Shown: positions 38,523 through 60,112 of the stretch, one piece after another
Numbering within the stretch: position 1 is the stretch's first letter
How the letters are laid out: the number at the start of each line of letters is the position of its first letter
Sequence record: MT446423.1
Source: Escherichia virus TH58
Direction: 5' to 3' (one strand)
DNA: 64,000 nucleotides
Made by a program: the position numbers and the translations under genes
Notes under the pieces: model-generated
What the model was told of the DNA's origin: nothing
The model's database searches: none
What the model saw: only the letters and a program-made list of their open reading frames with translations

Positions 38523-38554
38523 GCCCCTTCCGAAAGGTTGGGGCTTTTTTTTTT
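38523..38554 (+). terminator. intrinsic terminator GCCCCTTCC-GAAA-GGTTGGGGC plus T10
   Basis: GNRA-loop hairpin followed by a 10-nt T-run; one of four near-identical copies. Confidence 0.75.
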
Positions 38555-42310: not shown

Positions 42311-42321
42311 GGGGAATCATT

Positions 42322-49604: not shown

Positions 49605-49967
49605 ATGAAAGCATATCAAATTCTTGAAGGTGCACATAAAGGCACTATTTATTTTGAAGACGGTACTCAAGCCCGGATTATCGTCTCTAAGACTTTTAAA
49701 GAAGACGCTATTGTAGACCCGGAAATTTTCTACGGTTTGAATGCCCGTGAAATTGAAATTGAACATCAACCTAAAGTTAAAATTGAAGGTGGTCAACACC
49801 TGAACGTTAACGTTCTGCGTCGTGAAACTCTGGAAGATGCAGTTAAGCATCCAGAAAAATATCCGCAGCTGACCATCCGTGTATCCGGTTATGCGGTTCG
49901 CTTTAACTCTCTGACTCCAGAACAGCAGCGCGACGTTATCGCTCGTACCTTTACTGAGAGTCTATAG
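49605..49967 (+). CDS. autonomous glycyl radical cofactor (GrcA/YfiD-like)
   Basis: C-terminal half [61 protein letters not shown] matches the E. coli GrcA glycyl-radical motif (RVSGYAV). Confidence 0.85.
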
Positions 49968-53948: not shown

Positions 53949-54252
53949 ATGGCCTTAAGAGCGATAGCTGTCATGGCGATGCTGGGGTTTTTTTGCAGCA
54001 ACAACTCCTATCGTTGGTACTGCACATATTGACCCATATTTTGATAACTTTATGGAATCAGGGATTAAAAACGTATATACTTTGTTTGAAATTCAAAATG
54101 TCGAGAATTCTGAAAAATTCTATAAGTATATGGCAAAGCATTACAAAAATAGCCCCTGTGATGATGCATTTGAATGTCATGAACAAGGCATAAAAACTGC
54201 CAGACAATTTGCCGAGTTCATGAAAATAAAATTAGAGCCTACATCTATCTAA
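53949..54252 (+). pseudogene. rI: rI lysis-inhibition regulator (antiholin), interrupted by a +1 frameshift in a T7 tract
   Basis: AGGAGG RBS and ATG 53949 give MALRAIAVMAMLGFF then stop at 54030; the RI-like periplasmic domain (DPYFDNFMESGIK...KIKLEPTSI) continues in the +1 frame to 54252; T7 at 53988-53994. Confidence 0.6.
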
Positions 54253-59527: not shown

Positions 59528-59557
59528 GTTTACAAGGTCTATGGTTATGTTATTATA
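59528..59557 (+). promoter_or_regulatory. early promoter cassette (GTTTAC ... TGTTATTATA)
   Basis: Family member; GGAGG RBS follows. Confidence 0.5.
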
Positions 59558-59583
59558 GACCTATCAACTACTGGAGGTAAAAC

Positions 59584-60112
59584 ATGAACGCTAAAGATAT
59601 TTTCAACCTGGTAAATTATAACGACGGTAAATTTAAATCTGAAGCACAAAGCAAGTTCTTTAACGACGTTGCTTATGGTAACGAGATTACCGTGGACGGA
59701 GGTCAGATTTTCAAATCTCGCTGGAATTGGATTGCTATCATCGATTCAGTTGGAATTGTGGAAGTCTACAAAAACACTAGCAAAAAAACGTACATTATTC
59801 TGGTCTCGTGAAACTAACGAGCAGTACAAAAAGGATAAAGCATCTCGTTTATCCAAAGTAACCCAGGAAGATATCGAGTTTATCAAGAAAGATATCGAGA
59901 TGTACGAAAATTTAATCGCTGAAGACCAGGCAGTACTCGATAAGTTTGATGAAATTAAAGCTTCTCGTGAAATCCCTGACTTCATGAAAGAAACAGTAAA
60001 CGAACGATACGCTCTCACTTCAGAACGTATTGCAAACTATACAAAACAGAAAGCAGAACGTATTAGTACTCTTCGGAAATTTGAAGAACGTTTAAAGACG
60101 GTTCACGCATAA
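59584..60112 (+). pseudogene. early ORF split between two frames at an A7 tract
   Basis: Frame 1 (59584-59811) has the RBS and start; frame 2 is open from 59669 to 60112 without its own RBS; A7 at 59782-59788. Confidence 0.4.

Follow-up and report, generated by a model that had tools for sequence, protein, structure and literature searches.

A one-base homopolymer expansion disrupts the conserved early gene nrdC.8 in the genome sequence of Escherichia virus TH58

The sequence analyzed here is a 64,000-nt stretch of the Escherichia virus TH58 record (MT446423.1; hereafter, the window) from a T4-type myovirus of the genus Mosigvirus; this RB69-like phage shares approximately 96–97% identity over 24 kb with JS09, SF, PHB12, and others. 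On the plus strand, a 75-aa ORF opens with an ATG at 59584 and closes with a TGA at 59809–59811. It is preceded by a Shine–Dalgarno sequence, GGAGG (59573–59577, 6 nt 5′ of the ATG), and by an early-type promoter-like site (59529–59556; TTTACA and TATTAT separated by 16 nt, with a TG extension). The coordinates given for this ORF (59584–59811) and its A7 run in the original prediction are exact; the promoter assigned to it is a consensus match only (10/12), as promoter-like sites are no more numerous in the region than in shuffled sequences, and the same sequence is also present in relatives. The ORF consists of native codons 1–68, carrying an N66S change, followed by seven out-of-frame codons (TYIILVS) and the stop. 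The frameshift site is an A7 homopolymer at codons 67–68 (59782–59788), and two nucleotides upstream of the run lies an A-to-G substitution private to the window (59780), which converts Asn66 (AAC) to Ser (AGC). From 59789 to 60112, codons 69–175 and a TAA (60110–60112) continue in the +1 frame, encoding protein 100% identical to that of JS09. This frame is open mechanically from 59669, so that the limits proposed for it (59669–60112) are right, as is the reported lack of start context: none of its six possible starts (TTG 59669, ATG 59675, TTG 59732, 59750, and 59756, and ATG 59900) has a Shine–Dalgarno sequence.

Alignment of the DNA with four relatives places one extra A (A6 to A7) and the A-to-G change two bases upstream of it at this site. 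Asn66 is invariant in JS09, RB69, T6, JS10, and VR20, which represent four genera, and is changed only in the window. A second private change, a synonymous AAT-to-AAC substitution at 59664, lies in the 5′ half of the gene; relative to JQD51, the closest relative, all three differences in an 897-nt region (59664, 59780, and the extra A) fall within 125 nt.

Removal of one A from the run yields a 528-nt ORF encoding a 175-aa protein, the length originally expected for the fusion. The repaired product is 99.4% identical to its JS09 counterpart, with N66S as the sole difference, and matches phrog_2274 from end to end (residues 1–175 of 175, E = 4e-105); the join is therefore not a chance one. Identity is 97% to RB69, 83% to T6, and 66–69% to JS10 and VR20. 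The family is that of the early T4 protein Y05D ("uncharacterized 20.7 kDa protein"), or NrdC.8 (Pfam PF26901, Phage_T4_Y05D; phrog_2274). Relatives carry a single annotated 528-nt CDS at this locus in the order nrdC.9–nrdC.8–nrdC.6, and the window retains the conserved position within the nrdC–mobD early region, flanked by nrdC.9 and nrdC.6. Additionally, precomputed PF26901 matches fall on both halves of an equivalent split gene in a Logan contig, SRR21291469. These data establish that a single nrdC.8 is divided between the ORF at 59584–59811 and the +1-frame ORF that ends at 60112. In place of one uninterrupted ORF of ~175 aa, the TH58 window has a 75-aa ORF and a +1-frame remainder, and the locus is therefore a disrupted NrdC.8 family member. 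The family is known, the kind of event that made the lesion is well known, and no new coding mechanism is involved.

What is recorded of NrdC.8 function is limited. The PHROGs category of phrog_2274 is "unknown function"; a Pfam search with a profile set that lacks PF26901 returned sub-threshold noise only, and comparison of the structure model with the PDB gave no significant match, the best hits (E = 0.2) being generic helical hairpins. The literature on its function comprises only cleavage of its Shine–Dalgarno sequence by RegB, which cuts the GGAG of T4 nrdC.8 moderately (PMC1702504), and down-regulation under DRT1. The label "nucleotide reductase," used loosely in the DRT1 paper, finds no support in the present results. 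Many phage records label NrdC.8, NrdC.9, and NrdC.6 "thioredoxin," and NrdC.8 has once been called a "spanin" and once likened to a "tail sheath protein"; neither sequence nor structure model supports any of the three for NrdC.8, and they appear to be misannotations that derive from the name of the nrdC locus and were then propagated.

A comparison of orthologues had been suggested as a check on whether a single 175-aa ORF is the norm, and it is. Searching by tblastn across Mosigvirus, Tequatrovirus, Dhakavirus, and Gaprivervirus, one uninterrupted full-length nrdC.8 ORF of about 175 aa was found in 737 of 745 matching phage records; in JS09, RB69, T6, JS10, and VR20, the single ORF spans 174–175 aa. 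The tract is A6 in Mosigvirus and Dhakavirus and A5 in T6 and VR20; nrdC.8 of T2, T4, and T6 has only A5 at this position, as against A7 in the TH58 window. Orthologues encoding two separate genes and a downstream start with its own ribosome-binding site were both looked for as evidence against a single gene, and neither was found. That the locus might instead encode a 75-aa N-terminal protein and an independently initiated C-terminal protein has in its favor that, in the Logan contig with the equivalent split, gene callers give a second ORF of 118 aa starting from the TTG at 59756; the N-terminus of its product is the +1-frame reading of upstream DNA. However, no +1-frame start is accompanied by a Shine–Dalgarno sequence, orthologues are single ORFs, and the break cuts through a predicted β-domain. 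The orthologue survey effectively refutes two genes, an arrangement we consider extremely improbable.

The frequency of the A7 allele was assessed by querying GenBank with an 81-nt sequence centered on the site. All 147 full-length Mosigvirus matches have A6 and none has A7 or the G at 59780; all match over 80 nt with the same two differences. The exact A7 pattern had no match in IMG/VR and JGI metagenomes; the A6 pattern was itself present in only one IMG/VR contig, and these collections therefore hold too few Mosigvirus contigs for allele frequencies. No match was on record for the window's 75-aa product or for the neighboring NrdC.6. A7 is accordingly rare, being seen in the window and one Logan contig as compared with 147 A6 records. 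That contig, SRR21291469, was reached by a protein search that returned the 118-aa product; it reads CTAAC-A7-CGT, the same A6-to-A7 change without the window's G, and shows the same split into a 75-aa ORF and an overlapping ORF. It differs from the window by 72 mismatches over ~3,800 positions and therefore represents a distinct strain.

Other inactivating alleles of nrdC.8 occur as well. In another Mosigvirus, represented by SRR10084837 and a 169-kb ENA contig (ERZ27275920 k141_79324), a GAA-to-TAA change creates a nonsense codon (E20*), and gene callers then start nrdC.8 at Val37 (139 aa). A T4-like contig, ERR2245455, has an added A near codon 57 (GGT-ATT to GGTAATT) where there is no long homopolymer; this is either a further disrupted allele or an assembly error arising from low coverage. 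Separately, the NrdC.8 variant encoded by a 663-bp ENA contig has 164 aa, having lost 11 residues (ANYTKQKAERI) of the C-terminal helix through a deletion that keeps the frame. Because a nonsense codon is never a homopolymer artefact, these alleles demonstrate that nrdC.8 is dispensable and has been lost repeatedly. Such repeated loss shows that, under at least some propagation conditions, the phage can do without this conserved early gene.

The window contains a comparable lesion in rI, the lysis-inhibition antiholin gene (53949–54252, ATG at 53949), which is frameshifted by expansion of a T6 tract to T7 (53988–53994) and truncated after 27 aa. The original prediction likened the two breaks, and the likeness holds insofar as both are 6-to-7 expansions, the same kind of event; the rI tract is, however, T7 on the plus strand rather than A7. 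The rI expansion also recurs. It is present in GenBank record MK373778 (vB_EcoM_WFbE185), in which rI is unannotated, and in a Logan contig, ERR14207008, whose rI haplotype is clearly distinct and resembles that of SF; the expansion has therefore arisen independently at least twice. Plaques of an rI null are of the classic rapid-lysis type, and the ease with which these are selected in plaque picking explains the recurrence at this tract.

Two apparent one-base gains in six-base runs raise the question of sequence accuracy, and homopolymer lengths were compared across the whole window. It contains 232 runs of five, 48 of six, four of seven, and two of ten. Of the runs that could be compared with JS09, 188 of 189 with five bases and 36 of 37 with six had the same length, and SF gives a like picture. 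When both JS09 and SF are taken as references, the T7 at 53988–53994 and the A7 at 59782–59788 are the only long runs to show an unpaired insertion of a single base, and the only coding 6-to-7 expansions are those in nrdC.8 and rI. A tblastn search for frame switches, run with every ORF of JS09 and SF, and a truncation scan revealed no other broken conserved gene, with ~36 kb of essential structural genes included; the remaining frame-switch flags proved antisense or intergenic. A flagged truncation of vs.5 was only an ATG-to-GTG start change in an intact ORF: at 49967, vs.5 starts with GTG as compared with ATG in JS09 and SF, and the same base turns the stop of the overlapping vs.6 from TAA to TAG, leaving both ORFs intact. 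Both expansions lie in dispensable genes, with none among the 27 runs of the late-gene half, although this test of location has no statistical power.

Three side observations were also made. An A10 (2054–2063) and a T10 (38545–38554), both apparently intergenic, could not be paired with JS09 or SF by the flank method. A 2-nt GG insertion relative to JS09 and SF lies in a G4 run at 42311–42312, in the intergenic region between homologues of RB69 ORF139c and ORF137c. In JS09, RNA ligase 2 (rnlB) is annotated as two CDSs (L005 2162–2881 and 3012–3161), as against one CDS of 1008 nt in SF; the split may reflect a further disrupted gene or else an error in this relative.

The original prediction offered systematic homopolymer overcalls as one explanation for the paired breaks. 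Such error should yield many length discrepancies, including in essential genes, and only two of ~52 runs of at least six bases differ, both coding; with the agreement of five-base runs and the lack of other broken genes, this explanation is not supported, and judging from these comparisons the nrdC.8 break is not part of systematic overcalling. The other explanation offered, that the two sites share a slippage-prone architecture, agrees better with the data, since the identical expansions were seen again in assemblies of independent origin. Overcalls by 454, Ion Torrent, or Nanopore sequencing do resemble the present case in adding one base to a 6–7-base run and making an ORF that is perfect elsewhere look frameshifted; here, in contrast, the rest of the ~280 runs of at least five bases agree in length with those of relatives, and independent assemblies contain the same alleles.

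A more restricted artefact deserves separate consideration, namely that the phage has A6 and T6 and an intact 175-aa nrdC.8, and that a homopolymer-sensitive platform or polisher overcalled just these two runs, possibly in a specific GC-A6-C context. After the A-to-G change, the nrdC.8 site (59779–59789) is the reverse complement of the mutated rI site (53987–53996, minus strand), and GCAAAAAAAC is the 10-mer common to the two tracts. Nowhere else in the 64-kb window does a GC-A(n)-C context occur; no unexpanded GC-A6-C is left, and three C-A6-C runs and one GC-A6-T run have not expanded. This pattern is just what an error of base-calling or polishing tied to a specific context would produce. 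It would likewise agree with both discrepancies being +1 calls in six-base runs, with a repaired ORF that is perfect and without downstream decay, and with the absence of A7 from the GenBank relatives. The 324 nt downstream of the run show no decay, which fits a very recent mutation or a sequencing error alike. Private substitutions number ~11 per 3.7 kb here, giving a chance of ~2% that one would lie 2 nt from the indel, and no local template (quasi-palindrome or direct repeat) for a joint A-to-G and +A event was found within 1.5 kb on either side. The shared context thus suggests that the process adding the base depends on context, be it polymerase slippage or base-calling, and does not discriminate between them.

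Several lines of evidence nevertheless weigh against this restricted artefact. The window has no general homopolymer problem, with ~36 six-base and 188 five-base runs concordant and essential genes unaffected; the same alleles appear in independently produced assemblies, and the A7 of SRR21291469 lacks the G and hence lies outside the GC-A-C context. Real inactivating nrdC.8 alleles exist, E20* among them. Furthermore, a real frameshift in rI would be unsurprising, as rI is a classic target of rapid-lysis (r) plaque selection. An artefact is best regarded as the less likely alternative, yet one to be taken seriously, a standing that it keeps mainly because of the common GC-A(n)-C context.

Replication slippage at homopolymers, as described by Streisinger, is established T4 genetics, and we favor the reading that the nrdC.8 break is probably a genuine null allele produced by slippage at a hot spot. 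Under this reading, the extra A would be present in phage DNA rather than in the assembly alone, and the conserved A6 would have become A7 by strand slippage of the phage DNA polymerase during replication. The tract expands recurrently, and the +1 frameshift allele, because nrdC.8 is dispensable, could be fixed by bottleneck or drift; the outcome would be a null or strongly hypomorphic allele. The classic Streisinger hot spots of T-even phages, the A-runs of rII and the lysozyme gene, are similar in that they show a one-base change in an A run, affect a dispensable gene, and recur at the same tract in independent lineages. The present case differs in being the consensus of a natural or laboratory Mosigvirus isolate, in affecting nrdC.8, for which no phenotype is known, and in having a private substitution 2 nt upstream.

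The predicted consequence for the protein is loss of function. In an AlphaFold (AF2) model of NrdC.8 (pLDDT 73), a β-rich N-terminal domain (residues 1–77) is followed by a long helical hairpin (79–174). In this model, the break after Lys68 costs the N-terminal domain its last β-strand, which holds the invariant W73-S74-R75, and eliminates the C-terminal helical hairpin entirely; on this structural basis, the 75-aa product, of 8.6 kDa, is most likely inactive. At most a trickle of full-length protein would be made, through RNA-polymerase slippage or a +1 slip of tRNA-Lys on A7.

A functional form of such recoding can also be envisaged, in which +1 frameshifting or transcriptional slippage at A7 yields useful full-length NrdC.8 (a "pseudo-pseudogene"), perhaps together with a 75-aa short form. 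Re-pairing of tRNA-Lys by +1 on AAA-AAA-A, or loss of one A from the mRNA, should restore the exact wild-type sequence, and a hairpin region is predicted 3′ of the run (z = −2.4). The hairpin sequence is, however, identical in relatives whose gene is in frame, so that the downstream structure is no evidence for recoding; moreover, no stimulatory Shine–Dalgarno-like element or rare A-site codon was identified. Transcriptional-slippage pseudo-pseudogenes and the A-run recoding of IS elements and dnaX (PMC1088944) likewise have overlapping ORFs joined at an A run where slippage could restore the frame, but the run here is seven rather than eight, nine, or more, and homologues do not share the split layout. 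About nine A/T, sometimes eight, are required for transcriptional slippage to be efficient (Baranov et al., 2005; PMC1088944), and because A7 is shorter than this, rescue by such slippage should be minor. Programmed frameshifting or slippage is expected to show a conserved two-ORF layout with its run and a sufficient run length; neither was found, the gene being in frame in 147 of 147 Mosigvirus records and in 737 of 745 of all matching records. Functional recoding is accordingly very unlikely.

Slippage rates in related phages have been measured directly. In T2 and T4, slippage occurs at ~3e-4 per population for runs of at least six and at 2e-3 for a 7-base run, and reversion of a +A in an rIIA run is ~10,000-fold faster than that of a point mutation; "phage contingency loci" is the authors' name for tracts of this kind (Gomez, Barrick & Waters, 2025; 10.1101/2025.10.21.683753). 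The nrdC.8 tract shares several of their features: it is a homopolymer of at least six within an ORF of a T-even-type phage (A6/A7, codons 67–68), +1 variants occur among related genomes, its length polymorphism has arisen more than once (the window and SRR21291469 as compared with 147 A6 records), and the companion rI tract affects lysis timing. It differs in that the OFF allele is rare and that T2, T4, and T6 have only A5 here, and the figures for mutation rate and reversibility are those published for T2 and T4. A broader proposal would be that A6/A7 in nrdC.8 and T6/T7 in rI form a natural contingency locus in RB69-like phages, a pair of reversible, recurrently flipping ON/OFF switches that the window has caught double-OFF, with the GC…C context, reached through the private A-to-G change, raising slippage; we hold this to be unlikely.

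On the preferred reading of a slippage-derived null allele, the sequenced strain is probably an nrdC.8 null and, more consequentially, an rI null, and the rI lesion predicts an r (rapid-lysis) plaque phenotype. In annotation, the two ORFs belong under a single entry for a disrupted nrdC.8 (pseudogene or frameshift allele) and should not appear as two hypothetical proteins. The added value is modest and lies in the recurrence of identical homopolymer expansions in independent Mosigvirus assemblies; these 6-to-7 changes contribute a small body of evidence from natural isolates bearing on the proposal that homopolymers serve as contingency loci in T-even phages.
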